Shown here: piece by piece, positions 1 to 43,795 of the stretch
Layout: each line of letters opens with the position of its first letter
Numbering within the stretch: position 1 is the stretch's first letter
Origin: an uncultured Microbacterium sp.
GTDB taxonomy: Bacteria; Actinomycetota; Actinomycetes; Actinomycetales; Microbacteriaceae
Assembly (NCBI RefSeq): GCF_945952435.1
Contig: NZ_CAMFHZ010000006.1
Coordinates: forward strand, 83,183 to 147,182
Reading direction: 5' to 3'
Length of the DNA stretch: 64,000 bases
Translations under genes and position numbers: made by a program
The notes under the pieces: model-generated
Seen by the model: the letters and a program-made list of their open reading frames with translations, nothing else
Told to the model about the DNA's origin: nothing
The model's database searches: none

Positions 1-275
1 CCGGGGAAGATCCCCCGGCCCTCGGGCGACTGCGAGATCCCCTTGACCACCCGCAGGTGGGCCTTCATCTTGGTGATGTCCTGCCCGTCGAACGTGATGG
101 ATCCGCTCGACGGGTTCAGCAGGCCCGAGATCGTCCGCATGGTCGTCGTCTTGCCCGCGCCGTTCGCGCCGATGAGGGAGACGATCTCGCCCTCGTCGAC
201 CGAGAACGAGATGTCGTGGATCGCTTTGATCCGGCCGTAGTGGACGGAGACGTCCTTGAGCTCAAGCAGCGTCAT
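1..275 (-). CDS. livF: Branched-chain amino acid ABC transporter ATP-binding protein (LivF type); 3' part lies beyond the window edge
   Basis: Reverse translation from cat at 273-275 gives [53 protein letters not shown] (Walker A GANGAGKT). It overlaps the livG stop by 14 nt. Confidence 0.85.
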   Translation of the reverse strand, partial: MTLLELKDVSVHYGRIKAIHDISFSVDEGEIVSLIGANGAGKTTTMRTISGLLNPSSGSITFDGQDITKMKAHLRVVKGISQSPEGRGIFP

Positions 276-1170
276 CTTCGGGCTCCCCCAGGTAGGCGGC
301 GATCACGCGCGGATCGTTGCGGATGGCGAGCGGCACGTCGTCGGCGAGCTTGCGCCCGAACTCGAGCACCACGATGCGGTCGGTGACGCCCATCACGAGC
401 TTCATGTCGTGTTCGATGAGCAGAACCGTGTACCCCTCGTCCCTGATGGACCGGATGAGGGCCATCAGATCCTCCTTCTCCGCCGGGTTGAAGCCCGCGG
501 CGGGCTCGTCCAGGCAGAGCAGCTTCGGATCGGTCGCGAGGGCTCGGGCGATCTCCAGACGGCGCTGGGATCCGTACGACAGGTCGCGCGAGCGCTTCTG
601 CGCGTGCTGTGCGATGCCGACGAACTCCAGCAGCGCCATGGCGCGCTCGACCGAGCTCTTCTCCTCCCGCACGTGCCGCGGCAGGCGCAGCAGCGCACCG
701 GGGACCGACGTGCGGTGACGGGCGTCCAGGCCCACGACCACGTTCTCCAGGGCGGTCATCTCGCCGAACAGGCGGATGTTCTGGAACGTGCGCGCCAGGC
801 CCATCCGGGTGATCTGATGCTGCTTGCGCCCCTTGACCGACACGCCCTCGAGGAGCACGTCGCCGCTCGTGGGCTTGTAGACGCCGGTCATGGCGTTGAA
901 GCAGGTCGTCTTGCCCGCGCCGTTCGGCCCGATGAGTCCGAGGATCTCCCCCCGCTTGATGTCGAACGTGACGTCGTCCAGGGCCGTGAGGCCGCCGAAC
1001 TTGATCGTCAGGTTCTTCACCTCGACGAGCTTCTCGCCCACCTCGACGTCGATCGGACGCTCCGACTCCGCACCCTCGACGAGAGGCGGCTCCTGACCGG
1101 GCACGATCGCCGGCTCCGCGGGGTCGAGGACGGGCTCGACGTTCTCCGGCTGCGCGCTCTGGTCGCTCAT
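262..1170 (-). CDS. livG: Branched-chain amino acid ABC transporter ATP-binding protein (LivG type)
   Basis: Lies in ORF 262..1566(-). I set the start at MSDQSAQ (ATG 1170), which overlaps the livM stop as ATGA. Walker [10 protein letters not shown], signature [13 protein letters not shown], Walker [11 protein letters not shown]. Confidence 0.9.
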
Positions 1171-2366
1171 GATGCGCTCCCTTCCGTGCGCGGCGCGGCC
1201 GGTGGTGCCGCGTTCTTGGGCACCTTCGGCGGCATGATCCACTCGCCCGCCTTGCGTCCAAAGGCCATCAGGCGCATCTTGGCGGGGATCAGACCCTGCG
1301 AACGGTAGATCATCAGGATCACGAGGGCGACGCCGAAGATGAGGTACTTGTAGTCGGCGATCGCCGTGAAGCGCAGCGGGATGTACGCGACGATCGCGCC
1401 ACCGAGGATCGCACCCACCTTGTTGCCCGTACCGCCCAGGACGACCGCGGCGAGGAAGAGGATCGAAGTCTGCACATCGAACTTCTGGTTGTTCACGAAG
1501 CCGACCTGACCGGCGAACAGCGCCCCGGACAGACCGCCGACGCTCGCGCCGATCGCGAAGGCCCACACCTTGTACTTGAAGGTGGGCACGCCCATCGTCT
1601 CCGCGGCGTCCTCGTCCTCGCGGATCGCGATCCAGGCGCGGCCGACGCGCGAGCGCTCCAGGTTGCCCACGAGCAGCAAGATGATGATGAGGATCGTGAT
1701 CGTCAGCCAGTACCAGGGCGTGCCGTTCGAGTTGGCGAAGATCGGGATCCCGTTGGGACCGTTCCCCGGAGGCCGGCCGACGTTCTGGAAGCCGACCTGG
1801 CCCTTCATCGCGGGGATGATCGTGGCGAGGATGCGGACGATCTCACCGAAGCCGAGCGTCACGATCGCGAGGTAGTCGCCCCGCAGACGCAGCGTCGGCA
1901 CGCCGAGCACCACGCCGAAGATCATCGCGATGACCATCGCCAGCGGCAGCGTCCACAGGTACGGGATCTTCAGATACGGCGAGTCCGGGCTCGTGAACAT
2001 CGCCGCCGTGTACGACCCGACCGCGAAGAACGCGACGTAGCCGAGGTCGAGCAGACCCGCGTAGCCGACGACCACGTTCAGGCCGACGGCGACGAGTGCG
2101 TAGACCGCCATCGCGAAGAGCGCGAGCGGCCAGTCGTTGCCGGGCGAGGTGGTGAGCGGGAAGAAGTTCAGGTAGGGCATCGCATAGGCGATCGCCACCA
2201 CCGGGATCATCCACGCCCACTGCATGGGACGCGAGAGGCCGTTCCAGCGCTCGCGGAAATCCCGGAACGGTCCGCGACGCGGGGTCGCGATCGATTCGGT
2301 CTCGATCGCCTCGCGGGCGGATTCCGCGGTCGGGAGGGGACGGGGTCCGTCGGCCGAGGTGCTCAT
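1167..2366 (-). CDS. livM: Branched-chain amino acid ABC transporter permease (LivM type)
   Basis: Lies in ORF 1167..2459(-). Start set at MSTSADG (ATG 2366), in ATGA overlap with the livH stop. Polytopic membrane sequence typical of LivM (LDLGYVAFFAVGSYTAA). Confidence 0.85.
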   Translation of the reverse strand: MSTSADGPRPLPTAESAREAIETESIATPRRGPFRDFRERWNGLSRPMQWAWMIPVVAIAYAMPYLNFFPLTTSPGNDWPLALFAMAVYALVAVGLNVVVGYAGLLDLGYVAFFAVGSYTAAMFTSPDSPYLKIPYLWTLPLAMVIAMIFGVVLGVPTLRLRGDYLAIVTLGFGEIVRILATIIPAMKGQVGFQNVGRPPGNGPNGIPIFANSNGTPWYWLTITILIIILLLVGNLERSRVGRAWIAIREDEDAAETMGVPTFKYKVWAFAIGASVGGLSGALFAGQVGFVNNQKFDVQTSILFLAAVVLGGTGNKVGAILGGAIVAYIPLRFTAIADYKYLIFGVALVILMIYRSQGLIPAKMRLMAFGRKAGEWIMPPKVPKNAAPPAAPRTEGSAS

Positions 2367-3379
2367 GCCTTGCTCCTTCCGAGGGTGGTTCCGAGGATGC
2401 CGGTCGGCCGCACGAGGAGGACGAGCACGAGGATCACGAAGGCCACGACGTCGGCCCACTGCGCGTCGCCGAGCAGGATCTGCCCGTAGTTGCCGACGAC
2501 GCCGAGCAAAATGCCGCCGAGCAGCGCTCCGCGCACGTTGCCGATGCCGCCGAGCACCGCCGCCGCGAACGCCTTGACGCCGAGGATGAAGCCGCCGTTG
2601 TAGATGACGCCGGACGGGACCAGCATCACGTAGAACAGGGCCGCAGCGCCGGCGAGCAGACCGCCGATGATGAACGTGATCACGATGGTGCGCTCCTTGG
2701 AGACGCCCATCAGGGTCGCGGTGTCGGGATCCTGCGCGACCGCGCGGATCCCGCGGCCGGTGCGGCTGCGCCGGATGAACAGGTCGGTGCCGACCATGAG
2801 CAGCACGGCCGCGACGACGATGATGATCTGCTGGTTCGTGATGATCGTCCCGAACACGTCGAACACGGGCGTCGGGATGAACATCGTCACCGCGGGCTGC
2901 GCGTTCGCCCCGCCGATGAACGGCAGGAAGATCAGGTACTGGATCGCGAACGAGACGCCGATCGCTGTGATGAGGAACGCGAGTCGCGGCGCGTTCCGTT
3001 TGCGCAGCGGTCTGTAGGCCACGCGTTCGACGATGAACGCGGTGACCGCCGAGGCCAGCATGCCGACCACGAGGGCGAGCAGCAGGTCCATGATGATCGC
3101 GGCGGGGCCGATCGTCGGCGCGCTCGGGCCGAAGCCGAGAGAGGTGAGGGTGATGACGACGCCGTAGGCGCCGACGATGAAGACCTCCGAGTGGGCGAAG
3201 TTGATGAGGCTCAGGACGCCGTAGACGAGCGTGTAGCCCACGGCGATGAGTCCGTAGACGGCCCCGAAGGTGAGGCCGTCGAAGGTGGCGCTCCAGAAGT
3301 TCTGGAAGAGCGCGTTGACGTCAAAGTTGATCCAGGAGGAGTCCGCGTGCACGACGGACAGGGCGAAGAGATCGAGCAT
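2363..3379 (-). CDS. livH: Branched-chain amino acid ABC transporter permease (LivH type)
   Basis: ORF 2363..3379(-), 338 aa, polytopic. LivH-like motifs (GLIAVGYTLVYGVLSLINFAHSE). Confidence 0.85.
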   Translation of the reverse strand: MLDLFALSVVHADSSWINFDVNALFQNFWSATFDGLTFGAVYGLIAVGYTLVYGVLSLINFAHSEVFIVGAYGVVITLTSLGFGPSAPTIGPAAIIMDLLLALVVGMLASAVTAFIVERVAYRPLRKRNAPRLAFLITAIGVSFAIQYLIFLPFIGGANAQPAVTMFIPTPVFDVFGTIITNQQIIIVVAAVLLMVGTDLFIRRSRTGRGIRAVAQDPDTATLMGVSKERTIVITFIIGGLLAGAAALFYVMLVPSGVIYNGGFILGVKAFAAAVLGGIGNVRGALLGGILLGVVGNYGQILLGDAQWADVVAFVILVLVLLVRPTGILGTTLGRSKA

Positions 3380-3430
3380 TCAGGGTCGCTTCCAAGCGGG
3401 CGCGGGTCTCGCGCCGGGAACGAGCGGGGG

Positions 3431-3472
3431 AAAAGGATCCCGCGACGCGGTGGTGTCTGCGTCGCGGGATCC
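3431..3472 (-). terminator. Intra-operon rho-independent-type hairpin after the binding-protein gene
   Basis: Perfect 14-bp stem: ggatcccgcgacgc (3435-3448) pairs with gcgtcgcgggatcc (3459-3472). On the minus strand it is followed by TTTTCCCCC. It sits between the SBP stop (3479) and the livH start (3379). Confidence 0.6.
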
Positions 3473-3478
3473 CGTCGG

Positions 3479-4696
3479 TCACTTTCCGATCTGTCCGATG
3501 TAGACGATCTTGCCGTCCTCGATCTTGTAGCCGTAGACCGCCGGAGCCTGCAGTTCACCCGTGGAGTCCCACTTGTAGTGCTTGCTCAGGCCGTCCTTGT
3601 CGTAGTCCTTCACCCAGGACTTGAGGTCGGCGCGGCTGGTCTTGCCCGCGTCGATGCCGCTCAGCAGCACGGTGGCCGCGTCGTAACCCTCGATGGAGTA
3701 CGTGCCGGGCTCGGCGCTGAACGCCGTCTTGTACTGGCCCTCGAAGTCCTTCAGCAGCTCGCCCGGGATGCAGGGGCAGGTGAAGAAGGCGTTCTTGGAC
3801 GCGTCGCCGGCCAGCTTGATGAACTGGTCGTCCTTGACGCCGTCGGGGCCGACGAACGAGCCGGTGAAGCCCTTGGCGACTAGCTGCTGGTCGAACGGGG
3901 CGGCCTCGGCGTAGTAGCCGGCGTAGTAGACCGCGTCGGGCTTGGCGTTCATGATCTTGGAGATCACGGCCGAGAAGTCCTTCTGGCCCGTGGTGACCTT
4001 GTCGCTGCCGATCTTGGCGGAGCCGAGCGCGTCACCGGTCGTCTTGGCCAGGCCGATGCCGTAGTCGGAGTCGTCCTGCACGAGGTAGACCTTCTTGGCC
4101 TTGAGCGTGTCGGTGACGAACTTGGCGGCGGCGGGACCCTGCTGCGAGTCGTTGCCGAGGCCGCGGAAGAACGTCGACCAGTCGTTCTTGGTCAGGTCGG
4201 GGTTCGTCGCCGAGGGCGTGATGTGCACGAGGCCCTGCTGCTCGAAGATGTTGCCCGTGGCCTTGGACTCGCCCGAGAAGGGGAGGCCGATGACGCCGAC
4301 GATGTCGGACTCGCTGACCGCCTGGGTCACCGGGCCCGTCGCCTTGTTCGGGTCGCCCTCGGTGTCGAACTTCTTGAACGCGACCTGGCAGCCGGGGTTG
4401 GCCTTGTTGTGCTGGTCGATCGCCAGCTGGACGCCGTTGAAGATGTTGATGCCGAGCTGGGCGTTGGGGCCGGTCTCCGCACCGATGTAGCCGATGGTGA
4501 GATTCGAGCACGTCGCCTTGCCGTCGCCCGCGGGCAGGACCGCGTCCTTCGGGGTCTCGACGGACGTCACCGTGGGGACGTCGACTCCGCCGCTGCCGGA
4601 GGAGGACGACGGCGTGGCCGCCTGGTTCGCGCAGCCCGCCAGCAGCAGCAGCGCTGCCGCAGCCGCGACACCCGCGATGGCCTTCTTTCGCAACAT
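3479..4696 (-). CDS. Branched-chain amino acid ABC transporter substrate-binding lipoprotein (LivK/LivJ family)
   Basis: ORF 3479..4696(-), 405 aa. Lipoprotein signal MLRKKAIAGVAAAAALLLLAGC. Periplasmic binding protein type I composition. It heads the liv operon. Confidence 0.85.
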   Translation of the reverse strand: MLRKKAIAGVAAAAALLLLAGCANQAATPSSSSGSGGVDVPTVTSVETPKDAVLPAGDGKATCSNLTIGYIGAETGPNAQLGINIFNGVQLAIDQHNKANPGCQVAFKKFDTEGDPNKATGPVTQAVSESDIVGVIGLPFSGESKATGNIFEQQGLVHITPSATNPDLTKNDWSTFFRGLGNDSQQGPAAAKFVTDTLKAKKVYLVQDDSDYGIGLAKTTGDALGSAKIGSDKVTTGQKDFSAVISKIMNAKPDAVYYAGYYAEAAPFDQQLVAKGFTGSFVGPDGVKDDQFIKLAGDASKNAFFTCPCIPGELLKDFEGQYKTAFSAEPGTYSIEGYDAATVLLSGIDAGKTSRADLKSWVKDYDKDGLSKHYKWDSTGELQAPAVYGYKIEDGKIVYIGQIGK

Positions 4697-4875
4697 GTGA
4701 TTGCCTTCCGATTCGGGTCACCGGTCGACCACTTCGTGGACTCCGGCGTCATCAAGGTGTGGTGAGCGTACAACGCTGTGGCCGCTCCGCGCACGACATT
4801 AGTCCGACGGAGTCCAGTTTTCGCGTGATAACGCGGGATGGATGTTCGGATCGTTACCTGCGCGACTTCTGCGCG

Positions 4876-5907
4876 TCATCTGTCGAAGGCGAGGAGGACT
4901 TTTCCGGAGCGGGAGGGATCGGCGGCCAGGCGGAACGCCTCGGCCGATTCCGACACGCCGAGCACGTGCGTGACGATCCCCTCGACGTCGAGCGATCCGT
5001 CCGCGAGGGCCGCGATCACCGCATCCAGCTCGCCCGCGAAACGCAGGGATCCGATCAGGCGCAGCTCCCGGACGATCGCGGTCGCGATCGGGACGGGGAC
5101 CTCACCGGCGCGCTGGAGCCCCAGCAGGACGACGGTCCCTCCCGGTCTGGCCGCGGAGATCGCTGCGGCCAGACCCTGCGGCGTCCCGCTCGACTCGACG
5201 ACCACGTCGGCGTACAGCCCCGAGATCGTCGACGCGTCGCGCGCGTCGATCGCCGTGGCCCCGCGGCGGGCGGCGAGTGCGAGCGGGAGGGGATGCAGGT
5301 CCGTGACCGCCACGGACGCCGCTTCGTGGTGCCGCGCGACCGCCGCGACGAGTTGACCGATCGGACCTCCGCCGATGACCACGACGCTGCGCCCTCGGAC
5401 GTCGCCCGCCTGCCCGAGGCCGTGCCAGGCGACCGCGGCGGGCTCCGCGACCGCGGCGAGGGCCGGATCGAGTCCGGCCGGAAGCGCGCGCAGCATGCGC
5501 GTCGGCACCGCGACCCGCCGCGCGAACGCGCCCTGCGTGTGCGGGAGGTGCATCGCGGAGCCGAGATAGGTCGAGGCCGGCGCCAGGTTGGGCCTGTCCT
5601 GCGGCCAAGGCGTCACGCCGTCCCCGTGCGGGGTGAGCGGGTGGACGGCGACGGCCGTCCCTGCCGCAGGACCGGATCCGTCCGCCGCGGCGACGAGCAC
5701 CGTGCCGGAGACCTCGTGCCCCAGGATCATCGGCTCGCGTAGGACGGAGGCCCCTGCGGCGCCGTGCTGGACGTAATGCAGATCGGAGCCGCAGATGCCG
5801 CCGAACGCGATCTCGACGACGGCCTCGTCGGGGCGCGGTGCCGGCTCGGCGATCTCCTCGACGCGCAGGTCGCCCGCGGCGTGGACGACGACGGCGATGT
5901 TCGGCAT
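4876..5907 (-). CDS. idnD: L-idonate 5-dehydrogenase-like zinc-type (MDR) alcohol dehydrogenase
   Basis: 343 aa. GGICGSDLHY, ILGHEVSG and YLGSAMHLPHTQGAF resemble E. coli IdnD (GGICGSDLHYY ... FFGSAMYFPHVDGGF). The structural-zinc Cys cluster is absent. Confidence 0.7.
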   Translation of the reverse strand: MPNIAVVVHAAGDLRVEEIAEPAPRPDEAVVEIAFGGICGSDLHYVQHGAAGASVLREPMILGHEVSGTVLVAAADGSGPAAGTAVAVHPLTPHGDGVTPWPQDRPNLAPASTYLGSAMHLPHTQGAFARRVAVPTRMLRALPAGLDPALAAVAEPAAVAWHGLGQAGDVRGRSVVVIGGGPIGQLVAAVARHHEAASVAVTDLHPLPLALAARRGATAIDARDASTISGLYADVVVESSGTPQGLAAAISAARPGGTVVLLGLQRAGEVPVPIATAIVRELRLIGSLRFAGELDAVIAALADGSLDVEGIVTHVLGVSESAEAFRLAADPSRSGKVLLAFDR

Positions 5908-37798: not shown

Positions 37799-37813
37799 TG
37801 AGAACGGTTGTCA
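37799..37813. promoter_or_regulatory. Zur-type (Fur-family) palindromic box upstream of the COG0523 gene
   Basis: tgagaacggttgtca = TGAgAAC-G-GTTgTCA, within the extended palindrome ttattgagaacggttgtcagtaa. It lies 13 nt upstream of ATG 37827. Confidence 0.7.
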
Positions 37814-37826
37814 GTAAGCTGGCGGG

Positions 37827-38852
37827 ATGATCCTGCCTCGCGTTCCGGTCGTCGCCGTGACGGGGCATCTCGGCGCGGGTAAGACGAGCCTGCTCAACCA
37901 CCTGCTGCGCGCGGAGGGCGCACGGATCGGCGTGGTCGTGAACGACTTCGGCACGCTGAACGTCGACGCGGCCCTGGTCACCGGTCAGATCGACGAGGCC
38001 GCGGCCATCTCCGGAGGTTGCGTGTGGTGCCTCCCCGACGCCGGCGGCTTGGACGAGGCCCTGGAACGCCTCTCCCACCCCCGCCTCCGCCTGGATGCGA
38101 TCGTGGTGGAGGCCAGCGGCGCGGCGGACCCCGTCGTCCTGGCGAGACTGATCCGGTTCAGCGGCGCCGAACGCGTCAGGCCCGGCGGCGTGGTCGAGGT
38201 GATCGACGCGGTCGAGCACTTCACCACCGTCGACACGCGCGAGGCCCCGCCCCTGCGCTATCGCGCCGCGACCCTCGCCGTGATCGGCAAGAGCGACCTG
38301 CTGCCGCCGGACGAGCGCGCACGCACGGTCGAACGGATCCGACACCGCATCCGGGAGAGCAATCCACGGATCCCCGTCCTCCTCGCTCGCCACGGCGGCA
38401 TCGACCCCGCACTGGTCTTCGATGTCGCGGAGCACGCGGATCCCGCCGACCAGCTGCCGATCGCCGCCCTCCTGCGGGAGGAGGCGCACGACCACTCGCC
38501 CGGGCACGCGCACGCGCAGGCGACGTCGATCGCGCTGCGCGGGCCCGTCGCGCCCGGAGCCCTGGTCGATTTGCTCGAAGATCCGCCGCCAGGCGCCTAC
38601 CGGATCAAAGGACGCGTGCGCGTTCGTACTCCGAGGGACGATCGCGGGTACGTGGTCAACGTCGTCGGGCGCATGCTCCACATCGCCGCGTTGCCCGAGC
38701 CGCCGCGCGACGGAGAGCTCGTCGCCATCGGGCCGATGCTCGACCCCGTCGAGGCGCATCGGCGGCTGGCCGCCGTGCTCGACGCTCCGTCCGCGGCCCC
38801 CGATGCCGCCGGGCTCAGGAGACTCCGGCGGCATCGACGCCTCAGCGAGTGA
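37827..38852 (+). CDS. COG0523/CobW-family G3E GTPase (putative zinc metallochaperone)
   Basis: 341 aa. P-loop GHLGAGKTS, EASGAADP, GKSDL. His-rich linker EEAHDHSPGHAHAQ. CobW_C-like domain YRIKGRVRV. The metal motif is GCVWC instead of GCxCC. Confidence 0.85.
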   Translation: MILPRVPVVAVTGHLGAGKTSLLNHLLRAEGARIGVVVNDFGTLNVDAALVTGQIDEAAAISGGCVWCLPDAGGLDEALERLSHPRLRLDAIVVEASGAADPVVLARLIRFSGAERVRPGGVVEVIDAVEHFTTVDTREAPPLRYRAATLAVIGKSDLLPPDERARTVERIRHRIRESNPRIPVLLARHGGIDPALVFDVAEHADPADQLPIAALLREEAHDHSPGHAHAQATSIALRGPVAPGALVDLLEDPPPGAYRIKGRVRVRTPRDDRGYVVNVVGRMLHIAALPEPPRDGELVAIGPMLDPVEAHRRLAAVLDAPSAAPDAAGLRRLRRHRRLSE

Positions 38853-38928
38853 CGTGCCCGTGCCCCCGGTGCGGCGATCCGTCAGGGGACGCGCGCGGCG
38901 TAGGCGACCGTCGCCTTCGTCGACGCGA

Positions 38929-39819
38929 TCAGGTGCGGGACGCGCGAGCGATGGACTCGATCGACGCGTCCAGGGTGCGGGTGAACTCGTCGTCGCTCTG
39001 CGACACGGCCAGGCCGTCGAGCAGCGCACGGCTGAAGCTCGCGATCACGCCGGGATTCCGCGCCAGACGTGCGTTCGCCTCGTCCCGGCCGTACCCGCCG
39101 GAGAGCGCGACGACGCGCGCGACCCTCGGATGGTCGACGAGCTCCCCGTAGAAGCCGTCGACGCTCGGCAGGGTGAGCTTGACGGCGACCCTCCCCGCCT
39201 CCGGGAGCGCGTCCAGCTGCGCGAGGAGCTGCGCTTTCAGGAGTTCCTCCGCCCGTTGCTTGTCGGGGATGCGGATGTCGATCTCCGGTTCGAGGATCGG
39301 CACGAGTCCCGCCGCCAGAACGTGCTCGGCGACCTGGATCTGCTGCGCCACCACCCTCGCGATGCCGATCGGGTCGGCGGCATGGACGAGCGACCGCTCC
39401 TTCGTGCCGAACACGCCGCGGTCCGCGGCGTGGGCGAGCAGACCGTCGAGATCGTTGATCTCACGCATCGTCTGCACGCCGTCCCGGGGATCGTCGAGTC
39501 CGTGATCGATCTTCAGGAAGGGCAGGATCCCCTTCACCTTCCACAGGTACGCAGCCACGCCGATCCCGTCGACCGTCCGATCGAGGGTGCCGTCGAACAG
39601 GATCGCCCCCAGGATGCGATCCCCGGTGAAGGCCGAGCTGGTGAGGACGCGGGAGCGGGCGGCGTGGATGCGCTCGAGCATCTCCTCCTCGTCGCGATAC
39701 TGCGACTCGTCGACGCCATAGCGCCGGAGCGCGTCCGGCGTGCTTCCCCCGCTCTGGTCGAGCGCGGCGATGAAGCCCCTCCCCTTCTCGAACCGGGCGA
39801 GCTGGGCGGCGTCGGGCAT
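38929..39819 (-). CDS. Class I (Schiff-base, metal-independent) fructose-bisphosphate aldolase
   Basis: Lies in ORF 38929..39861(-). MPDAAQLARFEKGRGFIAALDQSGGSTP, PFLKIDHGL, FGTKERS, LVPILEPEI, VAVKLTLP and VALSGGY align along the whole length with staphylococcal-type class I Fda. An alternative GTG start is at 39861. Confidence 0.85.
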   Translation of the reverse strand: MPDAAQLARFEKGRGFIAALDQSGGSTPDALRRYGVDESQYRDEEEMLERIHAARSRVLTSSAFTGDRILGAILFDGTLDRTVDGIGVAAYLWKVKGILPFLKIDHGLDDPRDGVQTMREINDLDGLLAHAADRGVFGTKERSLVHAADPIGIARVVAQQIQVAEHVLAAGLVPILEPEIDIRIPDKQRAEELLKAQLLAQLDALPEAGRVAVKLTLPSVDGFYGELVDHPRVARVVALSGGYGRDEANARLARNPGVIASFSRALLDGLAVSQSDDEFTRTLDASIESIARASRT

Positions 39820-39863
39820 CGGCAGGTGCTGGGGGCCTCGGCGGGCCGGTCTGGCAACCACGC

Positions 39864-39986
39864 TCAGCCCTGTCGGCCTTTGAAGCGCGGGTTGAGCTTG
39901 TTGATGACGTAGACCCGCCCTCGGCGGCGCACCACCTGGGCTCCGGGCTGATTCTTGAGGGATTTGAGGGACGCACGGACTTTCAT
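39864..39986 (-). CDS. rpmJ: Ribosomal protein L36, cysteine-free (C-minus, zinc-independent) paralog
   Basis: Not in the ORF track (40 aa). Read by hand: [40 protein letters not shown]. It has no Cys or His zinc ligands, like YkgO-type L36. SD aaggag lies upstream. Confidence 0.85.
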
Positions 39987-39999
39987 GATGACTCCTTAC

Positions 40000-40014
40000 T
40001 GAGAATGATTATCA
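40000..40014. promoter_or_regulatory. Zur-type palindromic box in the divergent L36 / COG0523-like promoter region
   Basis: tgagaatgattatca = TGAgAAT-G-ATTaTCA. It lies 13 nt from the L36 start codon and 48 nt upstream of ATG 40063. Confidence 0.75.
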
Positions 40015-40062
40015 TTCGCTAGCATACGAGGCACCAGACAAAAGATGAAAAGAGGGACGCGC

Positions 40063-41094
40063 ATGGAACCGGTCGGCGTGATCGCGGTGGTGGGCGCAGG
40101 CGACACGGAACGAGGCGGCTACGCGACCGCACTGGCGCACCGGACGAACCGGGCGCTCATCCCCGCGTCGCGGCTGTCAGGATCTCCCGATCCAGCGCAG
40201 GAGGCCGCCGTGCTGGCGTCCTGGACCGACGTCCCGGAGGGCGTCGTGGTCGACATGCCCGACGAGGTGCCCGCGGGCGAGATCATCGGCACCTTCGTCG
40301 ACGTCGAGCAGGGGAGCACCCTCCTCGGCATCGTGTGCGTCGTCGACGCGGCACGAGTGCGCGACGAACTGCGACGGGTGGACGACGTGCCGCTGAGGGA
40401 CAGGGACAGCGGTATCGCCGCCCTGCGGGAGTCGCGCGCACGGCTCACCGCGTGGCAGATCGAGTTCGCCTCGACGATCGCGCTGGTGAACTGGTCGACT
40501 CTGGCCGCCTCGGAGCTGTCGCTCATCGCGTCGCTGCTGAGTCATCTGAGCCCCCGCGCGCGTCTACGCTTGCACGGCGGTATCGTGGAGCGCCTCGTCT
40601 CGGACGACGCCTACGCGGTGGAACAGGACCGCCCAGGATGGATGTGCCTTCTCAACGAGAGCTTCGATCCCCCGCTGACGGATCCCCGGGTGTCCGCCCT
40701 GCGCTACGAACAGGTCCGCCCGCTGCATCCGGGGCGCCTGGCCCACCTCCTGGACGCGCGGATCGAGCCGGGAGAGTTCGGCACCGTGGTGCGCTCCGCC
40801 GGATTCTGCCGTCTCGCGAGCCGCGGCGGCATCGTCGCGCAATGGGAGCACGTCGGGTCCGTGATCTCCCTCAATCCGGTCGCCGTCGACGCGCGACTCG
40901 ACGATGCGGACGAGATGCTCTCCCTCGGACAGGACCTCGCGTTCGTCGGGATCGACCTGGACCGGGACGGTCTCGTCGCCGCGCTGGACGAGGCCGCACT
41001 CACCGATGCCGAACTCGCCGAGGGCCCCGAAGCCTGGGCGAGGTTCGCCGACCCGTTCCCCACCTGGGCGACGGCATCCGATCGGCAGGACTGA
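40063..41094 (+). CDS. Degenerate COG0523/CobW-like protein (predicted pseudo-GTPase) retaining a CobW_C-like domain
   Basis: ORF 40045..41094(+). ATG 40063 is preceded by agaggga. The P-loop position reads VVGAGDTERG (no Lys-Ser/Thr). There is no CxCC. The NKxD position reads VNWS. The C-terminal part (VRSAGFCRLASRGGIVAQWEHVGSVISL ... LAFVGIDLD) resembles CobW_C. Confidence 0.65.
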   Translation: MEPVGVIAVVGAGDTERGGYATALAHRTNRALIPASRLSGSPDPAQEAAVLASWTDVPEGVVVDMPDEVPAGEIIGTFVDVEQGSTLLGIVCVVDAARVRDELRRVDDVPLRDRDSGIAALRESRARLTAWQIEFASTIALVNWSTLAASELSLIASLLSHLSPRARLRLHGGIVERLVSDDAYAVEQDRPGWMCLLNESFDPPLTDPRVSALRYEQVRPLHPGRLAHLLDARIEPGEFGTVVRSAGFCRLASRGGIVAQWEHVGSVISLNPVAVDARLDDADEMLSLGQDLAFVGIDLDRDGLVAALDEAALTDAELAEGPEAWARFADPFPTWATASDRQD

Positions 41095-41201
41095 ACGCCC
41101 CGGCGCGTGTGAGGCACGAGACGCGGCAGGGGTGCGTCGCGCACGACGCACCCCGGGCGTGCAGGAGCGTTCGACGCGCTCCGCGAACGGTTCCGACCGA
41201 C

Positions 41202-41846
41202 TCAGTGCTCGTCGTAGTGGTCGCCGTGCTGCGCGTGCTTGTGGCCGTCGTGGAGATAGTCCACGTGCCCGTCGTGCTCGACGGTGTCGTGACCGCAGTC
41301 GGCGCCGTGCGCATGGTCGGCGGGCGTGTGCTCCGCCACCGACTCGTGCTCGTCGTAGTGGTCGCCGTGCAGCGCGTGCCGGTGCGTGCCGTGCACGTAG
41401 TCGACATGGTCGCCATGAGGCACTGCCTCGTGGCCGCAGGCCGCCCCGTGCTCGTGCTCCGCGGCGGTGTGCTCGGCGTGGACGTCGGTGTCGGTCATGA
41501 TGACCCTTTCTCTATTGATGGGCGGTGCGGAGGGTGACGCTTGCGGAATCGCGGCCTGAGTTTCCGCAGTTTCCCGGACGTGCGCGAGCGCATCGGCGAT
41601 GACGTGGCTGACATGCAGATCCGCGAGCCGGCAGATGACCTCCTTGCCGCTTCGCTGCGATGTGACCAGCCCCGCCTGGCGCAGGGTCCGCAGATGCTGG
41701 GACACCAGCGGCTGCGACATGCCCGTCGCCTCGACCAGCGCTCCGACCGTCCGCGGCTCCTGCCCGATCGCGTGCAGAAGCTCCAGTCTCGACGCACTGC
41801 CCAGCACTTTGAAGAGTTCGGCAGCGGCGGCGATTCCCCGATTCAT
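41202..41846 (-). CDS. ArsR/SmtB-family metalloregulator with alpha5-type metal site, fused to a C-terminal tandem His/Cys-rich domain
   Basis: Lies in ORF 41202..41918(-). ATG 41846 is preceded by ggagg. HTH LFKVLGSASRLELLHAI ... SQPLVSQHLRTLRQAGLV. ADLHVSHVIADALAHVRE fits DxHx10Hx2E (SmtB D104/H106/H117/E120). No stop occurs before the tail, which has 25 His and 2 Cys in 94 aa. Confidence 0.8.
   Translation of the reverse strand: MNRGIAAAAELFKVLGSASRLELLHAIGQEPRTVGALVEATGMSQPLVSQHLRTLRQAGLVTSQRSGKEVICRLADLHVSHVIADALAHVRETAETQAAIPQASPSAPPINRERVIMTDTDVHAEHTAAEHEHGAACGHEAVPHGDHVDYVHGTHRHALHGDHYDEHESVAEHTPADHAHGADCGHDTVEHDGHVDYLHDGHKHAQHGDHYDEH
41205..41486. repeat. Tandem duplication (2 x 141 bp) encoding the 47-aa His-rich unit
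   Basis: The 25-mer gtgctcgtcgtagtggtcgccgtgc occurs at 41205-41229 and 41346-41370. The protein units both end HVDYxHxxHxHAxHGDHYDEH. Confidence 0.85.
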
Positions 41847-41910
41847 GATCTTTTCCTCCATACGACCATACATATAAATATATTGCAATGTGTCGATAGA
41901 GTTGGGAATC

Positions 41911-41952
41911 GTTCTCACTCGGGGCGCCGACGTCGAAGCCCCGAGTGAGAAC
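41911..41952 (-). terminator. Terminator hairpin downstream of the ABC-F gene
   Basis: Perfect 14-bp stem: gttctcactcgggg (41911-41924) pairs with ccccgagtgagaac (41939-41952). Confidence 0.6.
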
Positions 41953-41986
41953 GAGTCGCCGGTCGAGGCGGTCCCGGCGCAGGCGC

Positions 41987-43795
41987 TCAGCCGAGTCGCT
42001 CTGTGAGGTCGAACCAGCGGAGCTCGAGCTCCGAGACCTCGTCCTCCTGCGCCGTGATCGCCTTCATCCGCTCCCCCAGCCCCGCGTAGTCGGACTGGTC
42101 GTGGTCGGCGAGCGCGTGCTTCGCCTTCTCGACCTCGCCGTTCAGCTTCTCCATCCGCCGTTCGAGCGCCGCGAGCTCCTTCTCCGCGGCACGCCGATCC
42201 GCCCCGGTCAAGACGGCGCTGCCGGACGCGGCGGCGGGATCCGGGCGCCCTGCAGACGCGTCGGGGAGCTGTGCCCGCATCCGCAGATACTCATCGACGC
42301 CGCCCGGGAGATGCCGGAGACGCCCCGAGCCATCCGGTCCCGGAAGAATCGCGTACTGCTGATCCGTCACCCGCTCCAGGAAGTAGCGGTCGTGCGAGAC
42401 GACGAGCAGAGTGCCCGGCCAGGAGTCGAGCAGGTCCTCGATCGCGGCCAGCATGTCGGTGTCCATGTCGTTCGTCGGCTCGTCGAGGATCAGCACGTTC
42501 GGCTGGTCGAGCAGCACGAGCAGCAGCTGCAGGCGCCGCTGCTGACCGCCCGACAGATCCTTGACCGGAGTGGACAACTGCGCCGACGAGAAGCCCAACC
42601 GTTCGAGCAGCTGCCCCGGGGTGAGCTCGGCCGCCTTCGATCCCGTGCCGAAGGTGTAAGTCGTGCGGAGGCGCCCGATCACGACCCGCACGGGCTCGTC
42701 CCACACGTCCTGCAGCTCATCGAGGCGCTGTGTGAGCGTGCGCACCTGCACGGTCTTCCCGTGCTTGACCCGTCCGGAGGTCGGCGCGACCGTGCCGGAC
42801 ACGAGTCCCAGCAGCGTCGACTTCCCCGCACCGTTGACGCCGAGGATCCCGGTGCGCTCGCCCGGCGCGATCCGCCACTCGACGTCGCGGAGGACGTCCC
42901 TGTCCCCGAAGCGCACGCCCGCGTCGACGAGGTCGACGACGTCCTTGCCCAGGCGAGAGACGGCGAGCGACTGCAGAGCGATCCGATCGCGGATCTCCGG
43001 GACGTCGGAGATGAGCGCGTTGGCGGCGTCGATCCGGAACTTCGGCTTCGAGGTGCGGGCCGGGGCGCCGCGGCGCAGCCAGGCGAGCTCCTTGCGGGCG
43101 AGGTTCTGACGCTTCGCCTCCGTGGCGGCGGCCATGCGGTCGCGCTCGACGCGCTGCAGGATGTACGCGGCGTATCCGCCCTCGAAGGGCTCGACGATCC
43201 TGTCGTGCACCTCCCAGGTCTCCGTGCAGACCTCGTCGAGGAACCAGCGGTCGTGCGTCACGACGAGCAGGGCGCCCTGGTTCGCCGGCCAGCGCCTCTT
43301 GAGGTGAGCGGCGAGCCACGTGATGGCCTCGACGTCGAGGTGGTTGGTCGGCTCGTCGAGGGCGAGCACGTCCCAGTCGCCGGCGAGGAGCCGGGCGAGG
43401 GCGACGCGGCGCCGCTGGCCGCCGGACAGGTCCGCGACCGAGGCGTTCCAGTCGAGATCGCCGACGAGCCCCTCGATCACATCGCGGATCTTCGCGTCAC
43501 CGGCCCACTCGTGCTCCGGCGCCTCTCCGACGATGGTCCGCCCGACCGTGAGCGCATCGTCGAGCACGTCCGCCTGATCCAGGACGCCGATCGTGGTGCC
43601 TCCGCGCACGGTGACCCGGCCGCGGTCCGGCTCGCGCCGCCCGGCGAGCATCGCGAGGAGGCTGGACTTGCCGTCGCCGTTGCGGCCGACGATCCCGATC
43701 CGATCGCCCTCCTCGATCCCGAGGGTGAGGGAGTCGAAGACCACGCGGGTGGGGAACTCGAGGTGGAGGCCTTCGGCCCCGAGGAGATGTGCCAT
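41987..43795 (-). CDS. ABC-F family ATPase (Uup/EttA-like, no transmembrane domain)
   Basis: 602 aa. Two ABC cassettes (GRNGDGKSS and GVNGAGKST, with LSGGQRRRVALARL and LSGGQQRRLQLL) and a C-terminal coiled-coil. Confidence 0.9.
   Translation of the reverse strand: MAHLLGAEGLHLEFPTRVVFDSLTLGIEEGDRIGIVGRNGDGKSSLLAMLAGRREPDRGRVTVRGGTTIGVLDQADVLDDALTVGRTIVGEAPEHEWAGDAKIRDVIEGLVGDLDWNASVADLSGGQRRRVALARLLAGDWDVLALDEPTNHLDVEAITWLAAHLKRRWPANQGALLVVTHDRWFLDEVCTETWEVHDRIVEPFEGGYAAYILQRVERDRMAAATEAKRQNLARKELAWLRRGAPARTSKPKFRIDAANALISDVPEIRDRIALQSLAVSRLGKDVVDLVDAGVRFGDRDVLRDVEWRIAPGERTGILGVNGAGKSTLLGLVSGTVAPTSGRVKHGKTVQVRTLTQRLDELQDVWDEPVRVVIGRLRTTYTFGTGSKAAELTPGQLLERLGFSSAQLSTPVKDLSGGQQRRLQLLLVLLDQPNVLILDEPTNDMDTDMLAAIEDLLDSWPGTLLVVSHDRYFLERVTDQQYAILPGPDGSGRLRHLPGGVDEYLRMRAQLPDASAGRPDPAAASGSAVLTGADRRAAEKELAALERRMEKLNGEVEKAKHALADHDQSDYAGLGERMKAITAQEDEVSELELRWFDLTERLG

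Follow-up and report, generated by a model that had tools for sequence, protein, structure and literature searches.

What is a His-rich repeat module doing in one reading frame with a metal-sensing repressor? The question is raised by a gene at positions 41202 to 41846 of a 64,000-nucleotide (nt) stretch of DNA from an uncultured Microbacterium sp. (contig NZ_CAMFHZ010000006.1, positions 83,183 to 147,182), the whole of which is hereafter called the window. On the minus strand this gene joins an ArsR/SmtB sensor, a linker and a module of two repeats rich in His, Asp and Cys. Compared with homologous loci, the fused gene reads as a conserved two-gene operon that has lost a stop codon, a rare and recurrent event, through a net frame change in an unconstrained linker. 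We hold it probable, at roughly 60%, that a zinc-responsive two-gene operon has here become a single gene in which the sensor is fused to the module, the latter being a zinc-induced cytosolic zinc buffer. We infer the metal, the direction of the regulation, the buffering role and the existence of two products.

The fused gene and its sensor domain

The fused gene was divided into the following elements, the two repeats and the junction signals being given further below:

41202..41846, minus strand: fused open reading frame (ORF) made of the ArsR/SmtB sensor, the linker and the two-repeat His/Asp/Cys module, 214 codons and TGA with no internal stop
41854..41859, minus strand: GGAGGA, ribosome-binding site for arsR, with 7 nt between it and the start codon ATG at 41846
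41571..41846, minus strand: ArsR/SmtB winged-helix domain, residues 1-92, delimited from Pfam HTH_5, NCBIfam NF033788, PDB relatives and an AlphaFold2 (AF2) model
41571..41621, minus strand: alpha5 metal-site motif DxHx10Hx2E (D76, H78, H89, E92), from the sequence and a HMMER alignment to SmtB
41499..41570, minus strand: linker, residues 93-116, rich in Pro and Ala; the arsR stop of relatives falls within it or just after it

The N-terminal part is, by prediction, an ordinary member of the alpha5 group of ArsR/SmtB proteins. Residues 19-63 match Pfam HTH_5 with an E-value of 3.9e-14, and the score with NCBIfam NF033788 ('metalloregulator ArsR/SmtB') is 81.3 bits, the cut-off being 55. The nearest solved structures retrieved by a PDB sequence search were 8qkf (an unnamed ArsR, E 1.5e-20), NmtR as second-best, SmtB and CzrA; a literature search on the PDB code 8QKF returned nothing on the module family. 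In the AF2 model this domain follows the order alpha1-alpha4, beta hairpin, alpha5, with a predicted local distance difference test (pLDDT) score of 91-98. The stretch ADLHVSHVIADALAHVRE fits DxHx10Hx2E through D76, H78, H89 and E92, and these four residues align with the C-terminal DHH...H..E stretch of SmtB (1r22), which we take to hold the alpha5 ligands D104, H106, H117 and E120. Of the fused homologs 45 of 52 keep the motif, as do 56 of 58 of the unfused ones; the fused proteins P0008, P0073, P0075, P0099, P0106, P0107 and P0118 lack the DxHx10Hx2(E/H) ligands. The ArsR part has a single Cys, C72 in the beta-wing, which relatives do not conserve, and no alpha3 or alpha3N Cys motif of the CadC, ArsR or AztR types was found in that part, leaving an alpha5-only sensor. 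A first, sequence-only reading of this DNA had described an alpha5-type ArsR/SmtB sensor without alpha3N cysteines whose frame runs uninterrupted into a His-rich metal-binding tail. The two family matches with the full ligand set, the solitary unconserved C72 and the 214 codons up to the TGA bear out each of these statements.

A widespread family of two-repeat modules

The module was resolved into two units:

41346..41486, minus strand: module repeat 1, residues 121-167 (tandem repeat and alignment)
41205..41345, minus strand: module repeat 2, residues 168-214 (tandem repeat and alignment)

The whole module spans residues 117-214, that is 98 residues starting with Met, and its two repeats of 47 amino acids share 30 of 47 residues. 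Tandem Repeats Finder gives a 141-bp unit in 2.0 copies at 41196-41474, with 75% matches and no indels, and the 94 residues of both repeats comprise 25 His, 13 Asp, 9 Glu and 2 Cys. The counts given by the sequence-only reading (two repeats of 47 residues, a duplication of 141 bp, 25 His and 2 Cys in 94 residues) are therefore correct. Its picture of the tail as a locally duplicated add-on has to be replaced by that of an old and widespread two-repeat family with columns invariant across phyla. A database search for the repeat, which that reading had proposed, uncovered a large conserved family: with the tail of the window as query, 1830 proteins were retrieved at E<=1e-5, nearly all of them 'hypothetical proteins' of 90-130 amino acids without any Pfam domain. 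They span Actinobacteria, Proteobacteria, Acidobacteria and others, and include proteins of Rathayibacter, Curtobacterium, Propionibacterium freudenreichii, Streptomyces, Chloracidobacterium, Pseudomonas, Thalassotalea and many metagenomes. A profile built from 101 members detected 1306 clusters at 50% identity among 1.84 billion representatives, and 506 of these clusters reached E<=1e-10.

The repeats follow the pattern HxHGxxCGHxxVxHxDHVDYxHDGHxHxxHGDHYDEH, in which His, Cys, Gly, Asp and Tyr occupy columns that vary little or not at all across phyla, and every column that is invariant in our module alignments A1 and A2 is present in both repeats of the window. Each repeat thereby offers about 10 near-invariant His, one Cys and conserved acidic residues. 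AF2 predicts four short beta strands per repeat with two-residue turns between them, that is beta-hairpin meanders. Two simpler descriptions were rejected. A low-complexity tail is ruled out by the columns invariant across phyla and by the predicted beta-hairpin fold, and an origin in a recent local 141-bp duplication by the fact that the two-repeat form is common to Actinobacteria, Proteobacteria, Acidobacteria and Amoebozoa.

None of the libraries searched holds the module. The tail had no Pfam match at E<=0.01 nor at E<=1, no NCBIfam family match and no match at E<=1 in a PDB sequence search; for 11 other module sequences, Pfam at E<=1 gave chance-level matches only, the best with an E-value of 0.041. 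No description of the family turned up in the literature searched, motif strings included. The module falls outside the bacterial metallothioneins of the SmtA/BmtA type, with no match to that family and 2 Cys per 98 residues. It would thus be neither a metallothionein nor a member of an Hpn-like or other described family, and at most it may work like them. Normally the module stands alone as a protein of ~70-150 amino acids; here it forms the C-terminal part of a 214-residue ORF, with a Shine-Dalgarno (SD) sequence and a start codon still present.

Repeat number varies within the family, with one repeat in P0006, P0007, P0018 and P0232 and four in P0098. In L006 and P0124 both repeats are nearly identical, which suggests unequal recombination or gene conversion between repeats. 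The module also occurs at the C-terminus of C2H2 zinc-finger proteins, namely P0260 (Physarum polycephalum), P0365 (Nematostelium gracile), P0266, P0287, P0288 and P0341; the two named sources are Amoebozoa, and no Met stands at the junction in these proteins. Here the module has been joined, independently of the ArsR fusions, to a second kind of DNA-binding domain. In P0309 (locus L093, 2376-3605) the module sits on the C-terminus of an ABC-3 permease of the ZnuB/MntB type, whose gene follows an ABC ATPase gene. A few relatives of the module are misnamed 'zinc transporter permease' or 'threonine dehydratase', and the permease fusion probably explains the former name where it is attached to stand-alone modules.

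Separate arsR and module genes are the rule

Loci were sampled by the module alone, blind to ArsR, and two samples were drawn: the 80 best species-representative genomes, all Actinobacteria, and 80 metagenome loci found with a proteobacterial-type module profile, of which 77 were usable. In the first sample arsR lies directly upstream of the module on the same strand in 17 of 80 loci, 16 of them with separate genes and one fused (L006). In the second it lies upstream in 35 of 77 loci, with 34 separate pairs and one fusion (L152). Taken together, 52 of the 157 usable loci are linked to ArsR; 50 of these 52 are split and only 2 fused (~4%).

The gap between the two genes ranges from -35 to +129 nt over both samples. 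An ATGA overlap, in which the arsR TGA shares bases with the module ATG, occurs in 7/17 actinobacterial pairs (L001, L005, L013, L049, L065, L070 and L074) and in 4/32 metagenomic ones, and the other pairs of the first sample lie between 14 nt of overlap and 129 nt apart. SD-like purine runs precede the module ATG in 17/17 actinobacterial split loci and 30/32 metagenomic ones, and the alpha5 motif is present in 31 of the 32 analysable metagenomic partner ArsRs. An alpha5 arsR followed by the module is thus an operon conserved across phyla, and in most genomes its two cistrons are distinct but closely coupled, in many cases at the level of translation. Where ArsR is missing, the genes around the module differ from locus to locus, and the sampled loci show no second conserved partner.

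A tree of ArsR domains had made fusion look like the rule in a large proteobacterial clade; we discarded this as a bias from searching with a fused query, the module-only metagenome sample having 1 fusion in 35 ArsR-linked loci. The sequence-only reading, which saw a metal-buffering module built into the regulator, accordingly holds for the allele of the window and fails as a description of how the system is designed, the fusion being a rare variant (2/52).

Origin and recurrence of the fusion

The junction carries the trace of an overlapping gene pair:

41495..41498, minus strand: ATGA, composed of the in-frame ATG (41498-41496) and a TGA (41497-41495), which would be the arsR stop in the +1 frame

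A +1-frame ORF at 41495..41797 terminates on this TGA. From the alpha5 Glu codon to the ATG the closest relative, L001, has 3n+2 nt, against 72 nt in the window, so the frame must have changed within the linker of the window, which removed the stop. To the eye the linker DNA has diverged too far from that of L001 for the frame-shifting indel to be pinpointed.

The same features would be produced by an assembly error: an ATGA is typical of overlapping genes, one single-base indel would suffice to join two genes falsely, and the supporting contigs carry low coverages in their names, ~3-4x. We nevertheless consider such an artefact highly improbable and rejected it, because the identical 214-residue product is encoded on at least 10 metagenome contigs, the places shown coming from 5 ENA samples and as many assemblies. 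Moreover, related species carry fusions with different linkers, and fusions occur in finished isolate genomes. Unrelated linkers were seen in P0002 (75% identical), P0003, P0004, P0005, the metagenome-assembled genome of a Propionibacterium (L006) and Kocuria massiliensis, and the fused form is found in the complete genome of the isolate Bartonella sp. HY761 (CP104887.1). In NCBI annotation such fused proteins pass as plain ArsR/SmtB regulators. A neighbour-joining tree built on ArsR domains has the fused proteins scattered among the unfused ones in the actinobacterial part, with ~8 or more placements counted by eye, and clusters at 90% identity mix fused and split forms.

Such recurrence invites the idea that the covalent link itself matters, the module being a portable domain that senses metal or tunes the set point by contacting a DNA-binding protein, and the fusion a single-chain form of a two-protein sensor. 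The same two proteins have been fused repeatedly and independently, the module has also been joined to the unrelated C2H2 class, and the ATGA coupling suggests a roughly equal output of both proteins. In addition, the alpha5 ligands are missing from 7/52 fused ArsRs compared with 2/58 and 1/32 unfused ones, which hints that in some fusions sensing might have moved to the tail; these numbers are small and phylogenetically clustered. Fusion is rare and sits at the tips of the tree, as a tolerated accident would, and many modules have no nearby ArsR. The AF2 model loses confidence across the linker and the junction (pLDDT <50 at residues 112-119, between the ArsR domain and the module). We therefore regard a role for the link as unlikely. 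A broader version is only slightly less doubtful to us: the module would be a portable zinc-binding regulatory domain that partners ArsR in bacteria and C2H2 proteins in slime moulds, and the fused gene would yield a tethered sensor setting the threshold together with free buffer from an internal start.

Start signals kept at the junction

If the fused gene derives from two genes, does it still make the second protein? The signals are as follows:

41504..41510, minus strand: SD-like gaaaggg, 5 nt before the internal ATG at 41498-41496

The sequence-only reading had pointed to an internal SD and an in-frame ATG as the possible source of a separate product. These signals are indeed present and conserved at the junction; the spacing is 5 nt and not the 7 nt it had given, the only correction to its description of the sequence. 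In 56 of 57 fusions to ArsR, compared with at most 1 of 7 fusions to other domains, a Met is kept at position 1 of the module, where the stand-alone proteins begin and 14-24 residues upstream of the first CGH. Lys, Glu, Gly and Arg abound among the residues that precede this Met. An SD-like run stands 5-9 nt before the internal ATG in all five junction DNAs that were read, those of the window, L006, L090, L091 and L092. With both start signals of the module gene intact, internal initiation probably continues to supply free module.

A small palindrome, GGTCATGATGACC, spans the internal ATG (window 41493-41505) and gives a 5-bp mRNA stem with the start codon inside it; by eye, L092 seems to have a shorter version, GTCA/TGAC, and L001 none. 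Independent initiation might be damped by this stem.

Upstream region

Two palindromic sites lie before the fused gene:

41872..41899, minus strand: 28-bp imperfect palindrome centred on ATTGCAAT (inverted repeat I2), candidate ArsR operator
41903..41917, minus strand: Zur-box-like 7-1-7 palindrome TGAGAACGATTCCCA, 3 nt upstream of the 28-bp palindrome

We take the first of them to be the candidate operator of ArsR. The 28-bp palindrome is shared by 10 further loci, which represent at least 6 genera, and both its sequence and its symmetry (TATAnAnAnATTGC|GCAATnTnTnTATA) are found before arsR in Propionicimonas, Brachybacterium, Micropruina, Microbacterium, Agreia and Propionibacterium. The second site fits the actinobacterial Zur-box consensus TGaNAANNNTTNtCA (PMC5472717), and at the level of its sequence the gene thus has the Zur box of a Zur regulon. 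A Zur-box-like site lies 11-13 nt before ATTGCAAT in all six loci measured, and the combination of box and palindrome upstream of arsR is conserved across genera. The whole 64-kb window was scanned with the lineage form TGAGAAYGRTTMTCA, allowing at most 2 mismatches, and with 100 shuffles as a control. Exactly three sites were found against 0.2 expected by chance, and none of the 100 shuffles reached the observed count. The generic Zur pattern TGAAAATNATTTTCA matched only the site at 40000, the lineage-specific form being needed for the other two.

An inverted repeat with 26-nt arms, 88% complementary, occupies window positions 41906-41957, just downstream of an ABC-F gene (41987-43795, minus strand). 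One arm holds most of the Zur-box-like site (41903-41917) and the other amounts to a weaker copy of the box. The terminator of the upstream ABC-F gene likely overlaps the Zur-box-like site.

Zinc-related neighbourhood

On the other side, the fused gene converges on a group of genes related to zinc:

37799-37813: Zur-box-like site, before the COG0523 GTPase gene
37827-38852, plus strand: COG0523 GTPase gene
38929-39861, minus strand: class-I aldolase-like gene (weak Pfam match, E 2e-5)
39864-39986, minus strand: L36 paralog of 40 amino acids without Cys
40000-40014: Zur-box-like site, between the Cys-less L36 paralog and the P-loop-less COG0523-like gene
40045-41094, plus strand: COG0523-like gene, P-loop-less, CobW_C kept, ZigA-like
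41129..41154, unstranded: G+C-rich hairpin in the gap where the fused gene and the COG0523-like gene converge, read from the sequence

Together, the elements from 37799 to 41094 look like a Zur-type zinc-sparing island. The sequence-only reading had overlooked this zinc-related setting, as it had the palindrome and the Zur-box-like site before the fused gene. The nucleotide-binding domain has no match in the protein encoded at 40045-41094, which reads VVGAGDTERGG against GHLGAGKTS in its paralog at 37827-38852, and this protein may be a GTPase-dead paralog. Its homologs adjoin the module in the Microbacterium loci L005, L011, L012 and L013. The hairpin is likely a bidirectional terminator, which a scan for T-run terminators missed. 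No zur gene, second ArsR or second copy of the module was found in the window. Pfam scans of the larger ORFs from ~29.1 to 51.7 kb, that is within ~10 kb of the gene, returned no exporter of the CDF, P1B-ATPase or RND classes, in line with the earlier statement that none is adjacent, and no Ni or Co enzymes or transporters nearby.

Beyond the window, COG0523 or L36 genes neighbour the module in 12 other loci. The module is divergent from znuA, a COG0523 gene or zur, with a Zur-box-like site in between, in L045, L069, L073 and L011, the znuA cases being L045 and L069. In L011 (5399-6285, Microbacterium koreense) a FUR-family zur-like gene is divergent from the module and there is no arsR; two Zur-box-like sites lie between them, and the ATTGCAAT palindrome is kept directly upstream of the module. 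Either arsR was recently deleted there, or the palindrome serves something besides a cis-encoded ArsR. In L087-L089 (~1-5351), contigs of Pseudomonas and related ones, a stand-alone module closes a cluster of genes on one strand whose Pfam domains are GCHY-1, PRA-CH, YidD, Hexapep, Amidohydro_1 and ThrRS. This cluster looks like folE2-hisI2-yidD-cam-pyrC2-thrS, the zinc-independent paralogs of Pseudomonas Zur regulons. In these contigs the module is preceded by a conserved spacer of 108 nt, and a simple gamma-proteobacterial Zur-box pattern had no match in the Pseudomonas loci.

This context could mean that the module works at zinc shortage: as an acceptor or chaperone in the cytosol it would pass zinc from ZnuABC to COG0523 GTPases or their clients, and the Zur box would be a classical repressor site. 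The permease with a C-terminal module adjoins its ATPase, zinc-uptake and zur-like genes diverge from the module across Zur-box-like sites, COG0523 and L36 genes flank it in the window and in the 12 other loci, the Pseudomonas module closes a cluster resembling Zur-regulon paralogs, and a Zur-box-like site stands before the fused gene itself. However, the commonest partner by far is an alpha5 ArsR (52/157 loci), implying production at metal surplus. Apo-ArsR would be bound at low zinc, so derepression by Zur could not switch the operon on, and most loci without ArsR have no zinc-related neighbour. On balance we find the shortage role possible but doubtful.

The same neighbourhood bears on whether the system is specific for nickel or cobalt instead of zinc. 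Hpn is a Ni-storage protein and HypB tails are likewise dominated by His, and the module recalls both in this respect; NmtR is the second-best PDB relative of the ArsR part, and some COG0523 proteins serve cobalt. The terminal Glu of DxHx10Hx2E, on the other hand, matches the zinc-sensing SmtB, the context consists of Zur-box-like sites, a Cys-less L36 paralog, ZnuA/ZnuB-type genes and zur, and the scans found no Ni or Co genes nearby. Specificity for either metal seems to us quite unlikely, and zinc is favoured by the SmtB-like ligand set and the genomic context.

Proposed working

We propose that the operon responds to zinc surplus. The alpha5 sensors SmtB and CzrA release DNA on metal binding. 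The apo repressor would likewise sit on the 28-bp palindrome over its own promoter, and Zn(II), less likely Ni or Co, would fill the alpha5 site, take the repressor off the DNA and so induce the operon. The module is most likely induced at metal surplus because its strongest association is with alpha5 ArsR sensors. Once made, it would bind several metal ions, perhaps several per repeat, through its His, Cys and acidic residues. It would serve as a buffer or sink in the cytosol, doing with His what the metallothionein SmtA does under the control of SmtB, and the lowered free zinc would close a negative feedback loop. In the fused allele the buffer would be tethered to its sensor, with free module probably made too. 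The Zur-box-like site upstream would add an input from Zur, which would be most coherent as activation by Zn-Zur: a repressing Zur combined with apo-ArsR would silence the operon at all zinc levels, hence the need for activation. At zitB of Streptomyces coelicolor, such activation by Zn-Zur works through a Zur box that ends 8 nt short of the -35 hexamer on its upstream side (PMC5472717).

Several points weigh against this proposal. It depends on Zur acting as an activator, and a sigma-70 scan found no sigma-70-like promoter near the fused gene, the -35 and -10 elements not being located. Expression at zinc shortage, the reverse of what a sink induced by excess calls for, is suggested by the Zur boxes, by neighbouring COG0523 genes, by the fusion to a ZnuB-type permease and by the Pseudomonas cluster. 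Sites rich in His suit Ni(II) and Co(II) too, and the alpha5-like sites of NmtR and KmtR sense Ni or Co. The Met kept at the junction could reflect the youth of each fusion and not selection. Finally, confidence in the AF2 model of the module is moderate (pLDDT 63 alone, 61-83 in the full-length model), and Foldseek against the PDB with this model gave no structural neighbour, the best hit having E=4.

Significance and comparison with known systems

Cytosolic zinc buffering in bacteria is poorly understood. To our knowledge few metallothioneins have been described outside cyanobacteria and pseudomonads, and we know of no recognised zinc-storage protein in Actinobacteria. The locus points to a large family that is undescribed in the libraries and literature searched and that is tied to zinc control in three ways: through alpha5 ArsR in about one third of the sampled loci, through Zur-box-like sites and COG0523 genes, and through ZnuB-type permeases. 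The fusion allele is in addition a natural experiment on whether tethering a buffer to its own sensor alters the set point, and a clean case of ATGA gene pairs that flip between split and fused forms while the internal start stays.

Among small, cytosolic and very His-rich proteins, the module resembles Hpn and Hpn-2 of H. pylori, SmbP of Nitrosomonas and the His-rich Pseudomonas metallothionein, and like them it would presumably bind many ions per chain. No sequence relation to them was detected; unlike them it has a strict motif, predicted beta-hairpin meanders and no low-complexity His runs. With CzrA-CzrB and NmtR-NmtA the locus shares an arsR, here presumably autoregulated as well, as first cistron followed by the effector gene; their palindromic AT-rich operator has a candidate counterpart in the 28-bp palindrome. 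The effector of those systems is a membrane exporter, whereas here it is predicted to be a soluble metal-binding protein.

There is also a close likeness to SmtB/SmtA of Synechococcus PCC 7942, in which an alpha5 repressor likewise controls a small cytosolic metal-binding protein and not an exporter, and the ArsR part aligns to SmtB with an E-value of 1e-11. SmtA is a Cys-rich metallothionein of the BmtA type transcribed divergently from smtB. The module is unrelated to it, rich in His and Asp with one Cys per repeat, and its gene is co-directional with arsR, usually overlapping it and here fused to it.

A His-bearing tail after the sensing helix is known from NmtR, KmtR and the CadR of P. putida (PMC11672702). 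Those tails are short and bring one or two ligands to the sensing site, whereas the extension in the window has 98 residues and is an autonomous repeated domain with its own SD and ATG, normally a separate protein. The zitB gene of S. coelicolor (PMC5472717) resembles the locus in having a Zur-box motif just upstream of its promoter region and not over it, and in being expected to act at zinc surplus. It lacks an ArsR operator, whereas the gene of the window has a candidate one next to its putative Zur box. ArsRM of Brevundimonas is reported to have ArsR fused to the methyltransferase ArsM (PMC10190100), and there too ArsR would share one chain with a protein that it otherwise regulates, the effector and the ligand being different. 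What is new is that the module is recognised as a family, that this family pairs tightly with alpha5 sensors and that it is connected to Zur-type sites, and the interest of the locus lies mainly in this family, not in the fusion.

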